Source: a virus
Lineage: Duplodnaviria > Heunggongvirae > Uroviricota > Caudoviricetes
DNA: 12,475 nt
Reading direction: 5' to 3' (one strand)
IMG/VR virus record: IMGVR_UViG_2923286960_000002
Below, one piece after another: positions 1,837-10,150 of the stretch. The first letter of the stretch is position 1. Every line of letters begins with the position of its first letter. The notes under the pieces are model-generated. The model ran no database searches. It had not been told where the DNA came from and saw only the letters and a list, made by a program, of their open reading frames with translations. A program made the position numbers and the translations under genes.

Positions 1837-3129
1837 ATGAATACTGGATATTCTCCCGAACAAGGGCGGGGCTTCGTTCGTCCTGAAAAACAGAATCTGC
1901 AAAATTTTGCCGAAAGTATTCCGGTTATTTCCGGCCTTACTGGCGGGAGTGAAACCAATATTGTTAACGCCAGAGCGTTGCAGATGTTTGATGATAAAAA
2001 GGGAGTAAATTTAACTTACACCCCTGACGGCAATCAGAATATGAGCATTATCTCTGAGTCAGGTTTCTACAAACTAATAAAAACAAAAAGCGCCCCGTTG
2101 CCGGAGCGCCTTTGTGAACAATTAACCTACTGCGCAAAAAATGAATCTGAGCAGTGGGATTATATCAACCATGTGGAGAAGCGCCACAATTGCCGAATAA
2201 CGGGCAAAACAAAGGCCACCCGCTACGGTGGCCCCTCGACACAAGCTACACGTTATCCCCAACGCATGAGCATTGCCAACAATGCCACATTTGCGGCTGG
2301 TGGGCAATGCAATCAGTCTGGTTCAGTTCGTTGCCATACCTGCAATGAGCGCTTTTCCCTGTACTCTTTAAGGAATTGCTCAAGGGCAAAAGCACATGGC
2401 GCGAATCTTTCTGATTCATGCTCTATCTTTCTGCGCCGTCTTTTCCGTGCCGGTGATAATGTTTTGGTCAATTCTTTATCGGTCATTGTGTTGTCCTGCA
2501 TAGCAATGCGCCGTAATACCTTACACCACGGCGCTGATGGTGATTACTCTGGTTCTTTGGCCTTGCGGCGCTGGCGATATTCAACTTCTCGTTTTAATGC
2601 CGCAGTAACAAATTGCCCCGTACTTTCGCCAGGCATTTTTACCGCCTCAACATTGTTCATAACTTCATGCGGAACCCTTGCCGCAACGGTTTGTGATTTT
2701 GCGTTTACTGCTTTTGTCGCCATGTGGTGTACCCCTCATAAAAAACAAATGCAGTATGCAGGAAAAAAAATAAGTGTTCAACACTTGACGTGTTTAACAC
2801 CTGGGTTTAAATTGGTGTTCAACACCTTGTTGGCGCAAGGTGCAGAAACGACGAAACCCGGCAGTGCGCTAACACTAACCGGGCTTCTAACCACCAACGA
2901 TAGCGAAAGTATCGAGGTAGCTATGCGAAATCATACCACACACCCGCAAGGGCGGGACTCGCACAACCTGAATAAATACATCTGGCGTTTTATCGCCCTG
3001 AGCACGGCACAACCGCGCGTGATTACCATTGAGGCCACCAGCGAACAGGAAGCACGCCAGCAATCTCCGGCTGGCTGCGTGATGGTATTCGCTGCCCGTA
3101 TTCGTCAGGAGGTGTGCCATGTGCAATAA
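1837..3129 (+). CDS. Bro-N-like domain ORF (antirepressor-like N-terminus); 3' two-thirds of the frame doubtful, possibly degraded
   Basis: N-terminal ~110 aa resemble the Bro-N domain (NLQNF..., DDKKGV..TPDGNQNMSIISESGFYKLIKTKSAP). From about aa 120 the frame is Cys/Ser/Thr/Arg-rich and poor in Asp/Glu/Lys, and it is antisense to a well-supported RHH gene. No clear SD before the ATG. Confidence 0.4.
   Translation: MNTGYSPEQGRGFVRPEKQNLQNFAESIPVISGLTGGSETNIVNARALQMFDDKKGVNLTYTPDGNQNMSIISESGFYKLIKTKSAPLPERLCEQLTYCAKNESEQWDYINHVEKRHNCRITGKTKATRYGGPSTQATRYPQRMSIANNATFAAGGQCNQSGSVRCHTCNERFSLYSLRNCSRAKAHGANLSDSCSIFLRRLFRAGDNVLVNSLSVIVLSCIAMRRNTLHHGADGDYSGSLALRRWRYSTSRFNAAVTNCPVLSPGIFTASTLFITSCGTLAATVCDFAFTAFVAMWCTPHKKQMQYAGKKISVQHLTCLTPGFKLVFNTLLAQGAETTKPGSALTLTGLLTTNDSESIEVAMRNHTTHPQGRDSHNLNKYIWRFIALSTAQPRVITIEATSEQEARQQSPAGCVMVFAARIRQEVCHVQ
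2313..2501 (-). CDS. Hypothetical small basic protein, second gene of the leftward RHH operon
   Basis: 62 aa, highly charged (KRRRRK), 42 nt downstream of the RHH gene on the same strand; no recognisable fold by eye. Confidence 0.3.
   Translation of the reverse strand: MQDNTMTDKELTKTLSPARKRRRRKIEHESERFAPCAFALEQFLKEYREKRSLQVWQRTEPD
2544..2723 (-). CDS. Ribbon-helix-helix (Arc/CopG/MetJ-like) DNA-binding protein, putative island repressor
   Basis: 59 aa ORF below the track's length cutoff: MATKAVNAKSQTVAARVPHEVMNNVEAVKMPGESTGQFVTAALKREVEYRQRRKAKEPE. Beta-strand/helix/G-x-S-T helix pattern of RHH proteins; GAGGGG SD ~9 nt upstream of ATG; three palindromic operators immediately upstream. Confidence 0.55.
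   Translation of the reverse strand: MATKAVNAKSQTVAARVPHEVMNNVEAVKMPGESTGQFVTAALKREVEYRQRRKAKEPE
2753..2826. promoter_or_regulatory. Divergent promoter/operator switch with three GTGTT-N-AACAC palindromes
   Basis: O1 2774-2784 gtgttcaacac, O2 2790-2800 gtgtttaacac, O3 2815-2825 gtgttcaacac. Rightward promoter TTGACG (2785-2790), 17 nt spacer, TAAATT (2808-2813). Leftward promoter TTGAAC (complement of 2776-2781), 17 nt, CATACT (complement of 2753-2758). O1 overlaps the leftward -35, O2 lies in the rightward spacer, O3 just after the rightward -10. Confidence 0.55.
2923..3129 (+). CDS. Hypothetical 68 aa protein; alternative first gene of the rightward operon (same frame as the 3' end of the 1837 ORF)
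   Basis: ATG at 2923 preceded by GAGGT; lies ~100 nt downstream of the rightward promoter; its stop overlaps the next start (ATGTGCAATAA). Confidence 0.3.
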   Translation: MRNHTTHPQGRDSHNLNKYIWRFIALSTAQPRVITIEATSEQEARQQSPAGCVMVFAARIRQEVCHVQ

Positions 3130-6154: not shown

Positions 6155-6412
6155 ATGCGCACATCAGGAAAACTTAATAATCAGAAGAAGCAGCATAACC
6201 GCGCCATTGACCTTACAGAGCACTGGCTGAGAGTGGCGATAAAAATCATCGACCGCAACACGGGGGAAGGATACGCGAAAGCACATCCCGACCTGATAAG
6301 CGCATTCATGACCACGGCGGCGGCAAACTTTGCCACGCTGACAGAACGGGAGATTGCCGAAGCGGAACAGGTAACAACCATCAACGTTAAAACCGGAGAG
6401 GTGGAATCATGA
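6155..6412 (+). CDS. Hypothetical protein (85 aa)
   Basis: Strong SD GAGGGGG upstream; stop overlaps the SSB-like start (ATGA at 6409-6412). Confidence 0.5.
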   Translation: MRTSGKLNNQKKQHNRAIDLTEHWLRVAIKIIDRNTGEGYAKAHPDLISAFMTTAAANFATLTEREIAEAEQVTTINVKTGEVES

Positions 6413-6831
6413 CAGCACAGATAGCAGCTTACGGGCGGCTGGTGGACGACCCGCAGGTAAAACAGACCAGCAAGGGCACACCAATGACGCTGGCACGTAT
6501 GGCGGTCCCCCTTCCGTGCAGCCAGGCAGATGACGGAACGGCGACGATGTGGTTATCCGTCCTGGCATTTGGCAGACAGGCCGAAGCACTGGAAAGGCAC
6601 CGCAAGGGTGAACTCCTGAGCGTGGCGGGTAACATGCAGATCAGCCAGTGGACTGGGCAGAACTGAGAAACGCGGCAGGGCTGGCAGGTTATCGCAGACA
6701 GTGTAATCAGTGCGCGAACGGCGCGACTGGGCGGCAAAAAAGGTCAACAGGGCCAGGCTACTGACGCGCTGAACAGGGCAAAACAACAGGCGGGGAATGA
6801 TGATCCGTACGGGGATAACATACCGTTTTAA
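6409..6831 (+). pseudogene. ssb: SSB-like OB-fold protein interrupted by a single in-frame TGA (6664-6666); nonsense mutation, readthrough or sequencing error
   Basis: N-terminal 85 aa align to the SSB OB fold (YGRLVDDPQVKQTSKG...WLSVLAFGRQAEALERHRKGELLSVAGNMQISQWTGQN). The same frame continues after the TGA for 54 codons and ends in the SSB acidic tip ...DDPYGDNIPF. The TGA sits where SSB has a conserved Gly codon. Confidence 0.7.
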
Positions 6832-6846
6832 GCGACGAGTGACAGA

Positions 6847-6869
6847 AGCCGGAGCAATCCGGCTTTTTT
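6847..6869 (+). terminator. Rho-independent terminator
   Basis: Stem agccgga/tccggct, loop gcaa, followed by a T run. Confidence 0.6.
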
Positions 6870-6917
6870 ACGGGTCCTCCTGGCGGGGTGGGCCTGAACA
6901 CGGGGCGGGAGGCGCGG
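6869..6917 (+). other. Degenerate cos-like sequence, paralogous to the cos at 9311-9360
   Basis: tacgggtcctcctgg...acggggcgggaggcgcgg parallels tacgggtcctttccgg...acggggcggcgacctcgcgg, but the cohesive-end core is altered. Confidence 0.45.
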
Positions 6918-7044
6918 AAAAAAGCGCATTTTTGTGATTTTATCGTCATCATCATCATGAGCGTAATTTATTGTTTTTAATTGTTTTGATGCAAAAAAGA
7001 TGATGGTTATGGTTAATTTTTGTTCGACATCTTTGCAGGCAGAT

Positions 7045-7246: not shown

Positions 7247-7453
7247 ATGGCTGAAGAGAAAAAAGGCGGTGTTTCGGTGTACATAAGCCCCGAAATCGTG
7301 GAGGTGCTCAAGCAGCGCCACAAAAAAAACTATGAGGCTGGCGTGGCGGCTGGACTGGATCCGCTGATGACGCCGGAGCCGTCGATAGGTTCACTTGTAC
7401 GCTCTTATTTACTTGCGGCGCTTGGGATGCATAAAAATTATGGGGGTGAATAA
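7247..7453 (+). CDS. Hypothetical protein (68 aa), first gene of the head operon
   Basis: SD GAGGA upstream; stop overlaps the capsid gene start (TAATG); no recognisable family by eye. Confidence 0.5.
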   Translation: MAEEKKGGVSVYISPEIVEVLKQRHKKNYEAGVAAGLDPLMTPEPSIGSLVRSYLLAALGMHKNYGGE

Positions 7454-8508
7454 TGGCAGGAAAAGCAACGGCACTTAACACTAACCAGCTTTTCATGTAC
7501 CTGAATCGCGGGGATATTGCGGATTTTAAATTCAGCCCTCTGTTTACCACGCTGTTTTTCCCGAACGTGGCGACATTCAGCACGCAAAACATCATGCTGG
7601 ATACCCTGGACATTGAAGAAGTCACCATGTCGGCGTTTTGTTCGCCTATGGTGGGTAGCCAGGTTCAGCGCGATAAAGGGTACGAAACCAGCACGATTAA
7701 ACCTGGCTACATGAAGCCAAAGCACGAAATCGATCCAACGAAAACCATCATGCGCATGGCTGGAGAAGATCCGGCACAGCTTAACGACCCTACCTATCGC
7801 CGTATGCGCCTGATTACTGGCAATATGCGCCGCCAGATAAACGCCATAAAAGCGCGCGTGGAATGGCTGGCGGTAAATGCGGTAACGACCGGAAAAAACA
7901 TCATTGAGGGCGAAGGCATAGAGCGCTATGAAATCGACTGGAAGATCCCAAGTAAAAATATCGCCAGACAGGGACATGGCAAAAAGTGGTCAGAGGCAGA
8001 TAAGGAAACACACGATCCAATCTATGACATTGAGCTATACGCAGATCAGGCAGGTTGCCCCGCAAACGTCATGATTATGGGCGTTGATGTATGGCGCATG
8101 TTACGCAGCTTTAAAAAATTCCGTGAACTGTACGATCTCTCCCGTGGTTCAGAATCCGCCGCAGAGCTGGCATGTAAAAACCTGGGCGAAGTGGTGAGCT
8201 TTAAAGGCTATCTTGGTGATCTGGCCCTTATCGTCTATTCCGGCAAATACACTGACAGCGACGGCACAGAAAAATATTTCCTTGAGCCTGATTTGCTTGT
8301 CCTGGGCAACACCAACAATAAAGGGCTGGTGGCCTATGGTGCGATTATGGATCAGGACGCAGTAAGAACGGGGGCAACGCAAAACATGTACTACCCGAAA
8401 AACTGGATTGAGGACGGAGATCCGGCGATTGAGTACGTGCAGACGCACAGCGCACCGCAGCCGGTTCCGGCAGATATTCGCAAATTTGTTACTGTCAAAA
8501 TTGCTTAA
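7453..8508 (+). CDS. Major capsid protein, lambda gpE family
   Basis: 351 aa; conserved blocks shared with lambda gpE as recalled: FKFSPLF..LFF, PGYMKPKHE, EDPAQLNDPTYRR, WSEADKETHDP, VSFKGYLGD.A.IVYSG.Y, LVLGNT, YPKNW...GDPA, SAP. Confidence 0.92.
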   Translation: MAGKATALNTNQLFMYLNRGDIADFKFSPLFTTLFFPNVATFSTQNIMLDTLDIEEVTMSAFCSPMVGSQVQRDKGYETSTIKPGYMKPKHEIDPTKTIMRMAGEDPAQLNDPTYRRMRLITGNMRRQINAIKARVEWLAVNAVTTGKNIIEGEGIERYEIDWKIPSKNIARQGHGKKWSEADKETHDPIYDIELYADQAGCPANVMIMGVDVWRMLRSFKKFRELYDLSRGSESAAELACKNLGEVVSFKGYLGDLALIVYSGKYTDSDGTEKYFLEPDLLVLGNTNNKGLVAYGAIMDQDAVRTGATQNMYYPKNWIEDGDPAIEYVQTHSAPQPVPADIRKFVTVKIA

Positions 8509-8519
8509 CGGGGGATTCT

Positions 8520-8855
8520 ATGGACACTCCATACATTGAGTTATTTGCAGGCAGTCAGCAGGTCGCCACGACGCTGGTACATTTTGCCGCTGATGCTGGC
8601 GTTATTCAGGAATTTACCCCGCTGATGCTGGCGGACAATGGCGAGTTTAAGCCGTGGGATGGTCAGGAATCTGGCAAGGCTGTTTATCTGACTTCGTATC
8701 CTGTGGACACGTCAAAGCAGAAATCAGCACAGTGTTACAAGACGGGGATATTCAATATTGCCGCCGTTAACTGGCCTGAGAGCGTCGACACCGATGCGAA
8801 AAAATGCGCCGCCTTTGCGGGTTCCGGCGTATCCGTTCAGCCGCTGGCCCGATAA
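8520..8855 (+). CDS. Head decoration protein, lambda gpD-like
   Basis: 111 aa; TPLMLADNGEFKPWDG..., YKTGIFNIAAVNWPESVDTDAKKCAAFAGSGVSV parallels lambda gpD TPLMLDTSSRKLVAWDG..., YKSGTF.YEDVLWPEA..DETKKRTAFAGTAISIV. Confidence 0.85.
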   Translation: MDTPYIELFAGSQQVATTLVHFAADAGVIQEFTPLMLADNGEFKPWDGQESGKAVYLTSYPVDTSKQKSAQCYKTGIFNIAAVNWPESVDTDAKKCAAFAGSGVSVQPLAR

Positions 8856-8867
8856 GCAGGGGGAACG

Positions 8868-9281
8868 ATGGCAACGAATGAAAGCATCATGACGCTACCG
8901 CTGGCGAGTAAATTTAAAGCCGAAGCGCGGGCAATGGCTGACAGAGGTTTATCAACCTATGAGGCCGTATATCAACTAAACAAACTGGAAGAGCAGGACA
9001 AGCCGCGCGCTGATGCGATTATGGCGCTTCATGAGCATAAAGACTATCAGCCGCTGTTACGTGCAATGGCAAACGTGCCATGTATTAGCGTCGATAATGC
9101 TCGTGAAATCCTGAACATGACCATAGAGCAGGAGCGCCCAAAGGTTGCACCAGAGCTTACCGCAGCCTTTGAAAACTTTATGGACATGCACAGCCCGCAA
9201 GCCGTATCAGCTGGCATGGCATACGATGGCAGAAACCAGGGCGATGACGGCGACATCGATCGCATACTGAAAACCATCTGA
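8868..9281 (+). CDS. Hypothetical protein (137 aa), last gene of the head operon
   Basis: Good SD and protein-like composition; position analogous to lambda FI but no similarity recognised by eye. Confidence 0.5.
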   Translation: MATNESIMTLPLASKFKAEARAMADRGLSTYEAVYQLNKLEEQDKPRADAIMALHEHKDYQPLLRAMANVPCISVDNAREILNMTIEQERPKVAPELTAAFENFMDMHSPQAVSAGMAYDGRNQGDDGDIDRILKTI

Positions 9282-9286
9282 GACAA

Positions 9287-9311
9287 GGCCGGAGAAATCC
9301 GGCTTTTTTTT
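9287..9311 (+). terminator. Rho-independent terminator
   Basis: Stem gccgga/tccggc with gaaa loop followed by T8; near-identical to the hairpin at 6847-6869. Confidence 0.6.
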
Positions 9312-9392
9312 ACGGGTCCTTTCCGGCATATGGACCCGTTACGGGGCGGCGACCTCGCGGGTTTTCGCTATTTATGACGTTTTTCCGTGAAG
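9311..9392 (+). other. Lambda-type cos site (cos1): cosQ/cosN plus a short cosB-like segment
   Basis: tacgggtcctttccgg...ccgttacg | GGGCGGCGACCT (9344-9355) CGCGGGTTTTCGCTATTTATGA matches the lambda right-end/left-end junction as recalled, with the 12-nt cohesive end identical; followed by an R3-like cgtttttccgtg. Lies ~90 bp upstream of the Nu1-like gene. Confidence 0.85.
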
Positions 9393-9444
9393 GTGACACC
9401 ACCACCACTTGATTAATATTTAACCATGCAGTTAAGGTAACATT

Positions 9445-9885
9445 ATGATTGATAAAGCTTGTTTTGTAAGTCAGCAGGAAATAGCTGAACATTTCAAGGT
9501 TAACAGAACCACTATTCGCGCATGGACCAAACAGGGGATGCCGTATCTTAATGCGGATCGCGGAAAGTCTGGCGGTTATCACATCGGGCATACATTGCTT
9601 TGGTCTTCAGGTAAAAGCCGTCTTGAGGCCATCAGATATCACGTAGAAACCAGTGTGCTGGAAAAAATTATGTTTGCCAGGCTGCTTTCATCTGAGCGTG
9701 ACGAGTACTCCAGTGAAGAAACAGAACATAGATTTGATGAAGGTTTACAGATTTACGGCTACTCACCGGAAGAAGTGAGCAAAGCGCGAAATAAAATGGC
9801 CGGCTTTCTGGCTGGGTGGCGTCATGCCGTAAGCGTTCGCCGTGCCAGCATGGAACAATCAGTCGTTACAGAACAGCAAAGTTAA
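9445..9885 (+). CDS. Nu1-like HTH protein: small terminase subunit or TerS-mimicking packaging redirector (Rpp-like)
   Basis: 146 aa; N-terminus FVSQQEIAEHFKVNRTTIRAWTKQGMPYL..GKSGGYHIGHTLLW resembles the lambda Nu1 winged-HTH DNA-binding domain (QLADIFGASIRTIQNWQEQGMPVL...); SD AAGGT upstream. Confidence 0.75.
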   Translation: MIDKACFVSQQEIAEHFKVNRTTIRAWTKQGMPYLNADRGKSGGYHIGHTLLWSSGKSRLEAIRYHVETSVLEKIMFARLLSSERDEYSSEETEHRFDEGLQIYGYSPEEVSKARNKMAGFLAGWRHAVSVRRASMEQSVVTEQQS

Positions 9886-9914
9886 AAATCACTTTCTGTT
9901 ACGCCATCAAATAC

Positions 9915-10011
9915 GCAATACAACAACCACGTATTTTTTTAAAACTATTTGATTCAATTAGCATTTTTTTATTTTTAGCATCAAAAAAACACTATCAGGT
10001 TGTTGTATTGC
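9915..10011. repeat. 14-bp perfect inverted repeat flanking a 69-bp AT-rich segment (candidate cosB with TerS R-sites and a bend site)
   Basis: GCAATACAACAACC at 9915-9928 and GGTTGTTGTATTGC at 9998-10011; the intervening sequence is AT-rich with an IHF-like aATCAAatagTTt on the bottom strand. Confidence 0.5.
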
Positions 10012-10079
10012 TCTTTATTTTTACTTAGTTATCAAATGGATATGACAAACAATTAAACAACAACCTCCCTCTAAAAAAG

Positions 10080-10150
10080 CTCATAAATAGCGAAAAACCG
10101 CGAGGTCGCCGCCCCGTAACGGGCCATAATTCCAGGAAGGACCCGACGAC
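10080..10150 (-). other. Second lambda-type cos site (cos2), inverted relative to cos1
   Basis: Reverse complement reads cgggtccttcctgg...ggcccgttacg GGGCGGCGACCT CGCGGTTTTTCGCTATTTATGAG (12-mer at complement of 10103-10114), near-identical to cos1 over ~45 bp. Confidence 0.8.

Follow-up and report, generated by a model that had tools for sequence, protein, structure and literature searches.

A 146-aa protein encoded beside a cos site is very probably an RppA-type redirector of phage packaging in an EcCICFT073-like PICI

The locus studied here is an open reading frame (ORF) located directly downstream of a lambda-like cos site in a 12,475-nt stretch of viral DNA (IMG/VR record IMGVR_UViG_2923286960_000002; this whole stretch is referred to as the window), and it raises the question of what role a Nu1-like protein might have in packaging: does it act as a small terminase (TerS) of the island, or does it mimic TerS and redirect the packaging of a helper phage? 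We report that the predicted 146-aa product is identical to RppA of EcCICFT073 in 140 of 144 residues (97%; blastp). RppA is the product of c1503 (C_RS07025, WP_000565609.1, 144 aa), named by Fillol-Salom et al. (2019, Mol Cell, PMC6739421), and c1503 has the same position in the CFT073 island as the ORF has in the window. Our sequence comparisons make it highly probable that the product is a "redirecting phage packaging" protein of RppA type, belonging to an EcCICFT073-like phage-inducible chromosomal island (PICI) and acting as RppA does. The protein is as such already known and, since the mechanism and structure (as well as the genetics) were published in 2019 for a 97% identical protein, no new mechanism emerges from this window.

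The ORF is present as described in the first-pass annotation. It falls in a 90%-identity cluster with 229 members from E. coli and Shigella, among them the exact 146-aa protein, and the best match among the PDB entries is RppC (6hlk_A; 6HLK/6HN7) with E = 3.3e-31 over residues 2-125; the size of the cluster together with the match to a solved structure argues that the ORF is a genuine gene rather than a random open frame. The rpp gene was found in 99 of the 5426 complete E. coli genomes searched. An 801-bp query had given matches in 4188 genomes, as if the gene were very common, but the part in common is a segment of approximately 80 bp covering cosQ and cosN. RefSeq labels the gene "hypothetical protein", the records listed for the 99 carrier genomes all read either "hypothetical protein" or "helix-turn-helix domain-containing protein", and the searches of Pfam and NCBIfam returned no model that captures the 146-aa protein; thus, genome annotations miss a satellite function that is well characterised. 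It is safe to rename the gene rppA and to annotate the 145 bp that precede it as the island cos site. With respect to expression, a scan for sigma-70 promoters around rpp gave no match to the consensus better than 9/12, shuffled sequence yielding such matches at least as often, and candidate routes of rpp transcription include read-through and a helper- or AlpA-dependent promoter. The positions of the features discussed here are collected in Table 1.

Table 1. Features predicted in and around the rpp locus (positions refer to the window)
Feature	Position	Strand	Basis
Major capsid protein, gpE family	7453-8508	+	Pfam, E = 4.6e-50
gpD-like decoration protein	8520-8855	+	
137-aa protein, similar to the scaffold-like C-terminus of head maturation proteases	8868-9281	+	PHROG 53, E = 1.7e-10
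Terminator-like GC hairpin followed by a T-run, after the 137-aa gene and ahead of cosQ	9285..9306	+	Consensus scan; number found not above shuffle expectation
cosQ core GGGTCCT of cos1	9314..9320	+	Alignment with lambda cos; flanking TTTACGGGTCCTTTCCGG identical to lambda; assignment according to Fig. S1, PMC6739421
cosN of cos1, 12-nt cohesive end GGGCGGCGACCT identical to lambda	9344..9355	+	Exact match
cos1 right side up to the rpp start codon	9356..9444	+	Lambdoid likeness ends at ~9387-9390, then cosB-PICI
Proposed Rpp-binding R3-PICI AGGTGACACCACCACCAC, bp 48-65	9391..9408	+	Proposal of Murialdo & Feiss, PMC9026076
Putative Shine-Dalgarno TAAGGT, 6 nt 5' of the ATG	9433..9438	+	Read from sequence
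rppA allele (redirecting phage packaging protein), 146 aa	9445..9885	+	ORF, ATG start
cos2, inverted cos-like site	10060..10150	-	Alignment; cosN at 10103-10114 (-), exact GGGCGGCGACCT match; cosQ-like GGGTCCT upstream on that strand

The whole window represents an EcCICFT073-type island at roxA/phoQ, i.e. the same chromosomal site as in CFT073, and it is colinear with EcCICFT073, the matched blocks being 94-98% identical and the left-most block 86%. The genes comprise int, alpA, small ORFs, a D5-type primase gene, an SSB pseudogene, the genes for the major capsid protein, the decoration protein and a 137-aa protein, rpp, a 93-aa ORF and phoQ. As the first-pass annotation had stated, no large terminase is encoded among the genes from int to phoQ, and neither terL nor terS was detected in the 12,475 nt using the ORF list, Pfam and PHROG profiles and the RefSeq annotation. 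The genes for the capsid, decoration and 137-aa proteins make up a lambda-type head module (7453-9281, +). In EcCICFT073 the first two are c1499 and c1500, and the 137-aa protein gene probably corresponds to c1501. Deletions of c1499 and c1500, tested in 2018 for a role in interference, gave mutants that still transferred (PMC6092414), and EcCICFT073 is packaged in phage-sized capsids (PMC6092414, PMC6739421).

Some features of the window and its relatives are recorded separately. The SSB gene has an internal stop, leaving an 85-aa ORF (6409-6666), and in the identical strain B-2207 RefSeq gives a pseudogene at 6409-6831. The window lacks the gene for a PerC-family regulator that comes after SSB in CFT073, and approximately 307 bp (6738-7044) have no match to the CFT073 island. 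The 430-aa ORF at 1837-3129 (+) is probably no gene; all that RefSeq annotates there is a pseudogene for a truncated BRO-N domain (2041-2548) and, on the opposite strand, a YlcI/YnfO gene (2544-2723). CFT073 has a lambdoid prophage at the icd site, approximately 35 kb from the island, with genes for a Nu1-type small terminase and for a large terminase (L003, 44932-47380), which may be the resident helper "phage 4" of the 2018 paper (PMC6092414). In strain B-2207, whose DNA agrees letter for letter with window positions 9300-10100, the icd site carries no prophage.

Compared to RppA, the allele carries the changes A71V, D110E, A140V and D141V, and its C-terminal tail reads ...SVVTEQQS where RppA has ...SADTEQ, making it two residues longer. 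The window sequence agrees with the supplementary alignment and with the c1503 deletion-primer sequences of PMC6739421. RppB, from an E. coli PICI, is also 146 aa in length and has a tail, QQSVVTEQEN, that resembles the SVVTEQ.. of our allele (Fig. S1, PMC6739421); however, RppB is ~83% identical to RppA and differs from it at the N-terminus (MNNKDCF...) and in residues 51-60, where the protein studied here is RppA-like. The RppB-like ...SVVTEQQS tail is also present on other, slightly different RppA backgrounds within the 90% cluster. RppC (EcCIEC2733.1; 153 aa) is more distant, with 45% identity and a 2-residue insertion after position 78, but it shares the architecture of a winged-HTH domain followed by a helical dimerisation domain, and its structure has been solved both alone (6HLK) and in complex with residues 1-98 of lambda TerS (6HN7) (PMC6739421). 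A single-sequence AlphaFold2 model of our protein is of too low confidence to serve as evidence (mean pLDDT 51, pTM 0.38); it has two short helices, a hairpin and long helices, in the same order of elements as in RppC.

With domain limits transferred by alignment from the RppC structure (PMC6739421), residues 1-64 correspond to the winged-HTH DNA-binding domain (DBD) that mimics the DBD of TerS, and residues ~65-137 to the helical domain for dimerisation and TerS contact. In RppC, the N-terminal winged-HTH (1-64) superimposes on the Nu1 DBD while the C-terminal domain is helical and dimerising; in the complex, the RppC DBD sits where the second TerS DBD would be, giving a TerS-Rpp2-TerS assembly (PMC6739421). 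The residues probed by mutagenesis (R21, T22, L51 and F121) are all conserved in our allele: R21 and T22, together with T23, R25, W27, K29 and K41, are invariant in an alignment with RppA alleles and RppC, and L51 (TerS heterodimerisation), G120, F121 (homodimerisation, helix alpha6) and G124 are likewise kept. Specifically, the recognition-helix residues R21 and T22 are needed for cos1-directed packaging, RppA L51D has lost TerS binding, and F121R has lost both dimerisation and function (PMC6739421). Relative to RppC, G120 and G124 align with G122 and G126 of alpha6, the hydrophobic F121 aligns with I123, and differences are seen at wing/helix positions (Q30, R39 and G43 here versus R30, K39 and R43); lambda TerS is bound more strongly by RppC than by RppA (PMC6739421). 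When RppC is bound to TerS, helix alpha6 of Rpp packs with its C-terminal end on that part of TerS helix alpha3 to which the escape mutation E65K maps (PMC6739421). The variable extreme C-terminus could conceivably tune which helper TerS variants are captured, although we regard this as unlikely; if it does, the shuffling of tails would represent an adaptive response, in an arms race, to escape alleles of the helper TerS.

The relationship to Nu1 is limited to the N-terminal part of the protein, as the first-pass annotation had noted, and it is weak. Comparison with lambda Nu1 (translated from NC_001416) using blastp aligned residues 8-56 with 16/49 identities (33%), and no other part of the protein gave a credible match. 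The Pfam profile Phage_Nu1 (PF07471) matches residues 8-40 on profile positions 3-36 of 164 with E = 0.026 and 14.6 bits, below the gathering cut-off of 30 bits, and PHROG 57 ("terminase small subunit") matches residues 7-47 with E = 3.6e-8. When a small Rpp profile, of which RppC itself is a part, was searched against all PDB sequences, residues 8-72 matched lambda-type TerS DBDs (6hn7_B, 7lxs, 1j9i, 7lw0 and 7lwr) with E = 0.002-0.02, and at E <= 1 this search brought up no further HTH family. At 146 aa the protein is 35 aa shorter than Nu1 (181 aa), in which approximately the last 40 residues constitute the oligomerisation and TerL-binding region (PMC9026076). We found no counterpart of this region, the blastp and profile matches ending at ~56-72, and both the shorter length and the missing TerL-contact segment are thereby in keeping with the first description of the ORF. 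No large-terminase gene adjoins rpp, which is followed by an AT-rich spacer, the inverted cos2, the 93-aa ORF and phoQ. On the basis of the score below the Pfam threshold, the lack of a Nu1-type C-terminus and the lack of an adjacent terL, sequence comparison places the protein outside the Nu1 small-terminase family, its N-terminal domain being Nu1-like.

These data bear on the first of the two alternatives, namely that the protein is a self-sufficient island small terminase which binds the island cos, recruits the helper TerL directly and replaces the helper TerS, as does the TerS of pac-type SaPIs. A winged-HTH of TerS type at the N-terminus and the location of the gene directly downstream of cos, like nu1 in lambda, would both fit such a role. 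However, Nu1 likeness stays below the Pfam threshold and does not extend beyond residues ~58-72, and the 35 aa that are missing are close in size to the ~40-residue part with which Nu1 binds TerL (PMC9026076). Moreover, a terS deletion in the helper abolishes the transfer of EcCICFT073, the island with the 97% identical RppA (< 1 transductant per ml; PMC6092414), and TerS mutants unable to bind RppA transfer the island poorly (PMC6739421). We consequently consider replacement of the helper TerS very improbable. Thus, where the first-pass annotation had left the choice between an island small terminase and a TerS mimic forming a heterocomplex as reported for Rpp, the latter is borne out by the 97% identity to RppA and the shared cos1, while the former is contradicted by the terS deletion.

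A further possibility is that the protein is an ordinary MerR/BldC/Xre-like HTH regulator of island transcription, unrelated to packaging. It does give hits to generic HTH-regulator models (MerR_1, HTH_17, BldC and others), but these cover only ~20-30 HTH residues and none scores above its curated cut-off: 16.2 bits versus 21.6 for Pfam MerR_1, and 17.4 bits versus 77 for NCBIfam HTH_BldC. In contrast, homology over the full length is to the Rpp proteins, for which a role in packaging has been demonstrated, and a transcription regulator can in our view practically be dismissed. The first-pass annotation had named assignment to an unrelated HTH regulator family by profile search, together with a deletion that leaves island transfer unaffected, as a result that would refute its reading; no profile assigns the protein to such a family.

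The DNA upstream of the gene is informative with respect to the site on which the protein would act. Counted from the left cohesive end of cos1, the rpp ATG is at bp 102; identity to lambda amounts to 93% over bp 1-40 but drops to 26% over bp 41-110. The start codon of rppA in EcCICFT073 is likewise 102 bp from the cohesive end, and from bp -29 through the rpp start codon our cos1 is 100% identical to the EcCICFT073 cos1, which has been functionally tested; island type and chromosomal site are also shared. The cosQ-cosN segment (~9307-9390) was found at 7728 places in 4187 of the 5426 complete E. coli genomes with 80-90% identity, presumably in lambdoid prophages, while the full cos1 is present in only 82 of these genomes. 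This difference sets the start of the island-specific cosB at ~9391, which coincides with the start of the R3-PICI proposed in PMC9026076. The support for binding of Rpp-TerS to cosB-PICI is entirely genetic, and the precise site of binding has the status of a proposal (PMC9026076). The presence of the cosQ-cosN segment in 4187 of 5426 genomes also implies that lambda-type cos sites are nearly ubiquitous in E. coli, and with them prophages that are potential helpers or remnants of helpers.

The cos2 of EcCICFT073 is not the RppA-responsive site (PMC6739421), and the cos2 in the window is 65% identical to it over 155 aligned bp, with nearly all mismatches past bp ~35; cosQ and cosN are kept while the cosB side is unrelated to that of the CFT073 cos2. 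The AT-rich spacer that begins after the rpp stop codon (9886-10072) is also unrelated to the sequence between rppA and cos2 in EcCICFT073. That the cosB side of cos2 has diverged between the islands, whereas cos1 has remained identical, suggests that there is no selection on the cosB side of cos2.

Conservation of all key residues together with the identity of the target cos1 is the reason for predicting that the protein acts as RppA does, and in sequence, residues, gene position and island context alike it shows what characterises the Rpp family. We infer from the published orthologue that this allele would bind TerS, interfere with the helper and redirect packaging. Experimentally, cloned rppA, rppB or rppC block lambda and phi80 but not HK97, and phages that escape carry mutations in TerS (E65K, Y50N and others); both RppA and RppC homodimerise and bind TerS; deletion of rppA, or the use of TerS escape phages, lowers island transfer; and RppA increases the transfer of a cos1 plasmid while it decreases that of a plasmid with the phage cos (PMC6739421). 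TerS binding, helper block and island packaging have been shown for RppA, RppB, RppC and the P. gergoviae Rpp (PMC6739421).

By homology to RppA and RppC, two protomers of our protein would associate through the long C-terminal helix, and the N-terminal winged-HTH would take the place of one TerS DBD, so that each Rpp protomer would capture one monomer of helper Nu1 in a TerS-Rpp2-TerS complex. Packaging of the helper would be blocked because the hybrid DNA-binding unit would no longer recognise the phage cosB. The recognition helix, with R21 and T22, would instead be predicted to read the island cosB directly upstream of rpp, and the TerS moiety to bring in the helper TerL, which would cut the lambda-identical cosN and package island DNA into helper capsids.

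It could be argued that only the first half of this scheme applies and that the protein is purely a decoy, which sequesters helper TerS like the Ppi of SaPIs and takes no part in the recognition of the island cos. RppA R21A/T22A still blocks phage packaging while it has lost the promotion of cos1 packaging, showing that interference and DNA recognition are separable (PMC6739421), and a decoy would be compatible with the former property. Our allele, however, retains both R21 and T22, and the cos1 in the window does not differ from the site to which RppA responds; moreover, the lowered island transfer upon deletion of rppA and the raised transfer of the cos1 plasmid by RppA (PMC6739421) argue against a protein that acts on TerS only. 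A pure decoy is accordingly as improbable as an island small terminase, and an Rpp protein that both captures helper TerS and reads the island cosB is the reading we favour. In this way a satellite would reprogram the terminase of its helper through domain mimicry.

With lambda gpNu1 (PF07471; 1J9I) the protein shares the winged-HTH domain, and nu1 is likewise located directly downstream of cos; Rpp differs in that it recognises another cosB and requires Nu1 itself as a partner. The SaPIs reach a similar outcome with Ppi and TerS, i.e. helper packaging is blocked and island packaging is favoured (PMC6739421). There, two proteins share the tasks and the island TerS acts without the phage TerS, whereas in the Rpp system a single protein performs both through a heterocomplex.
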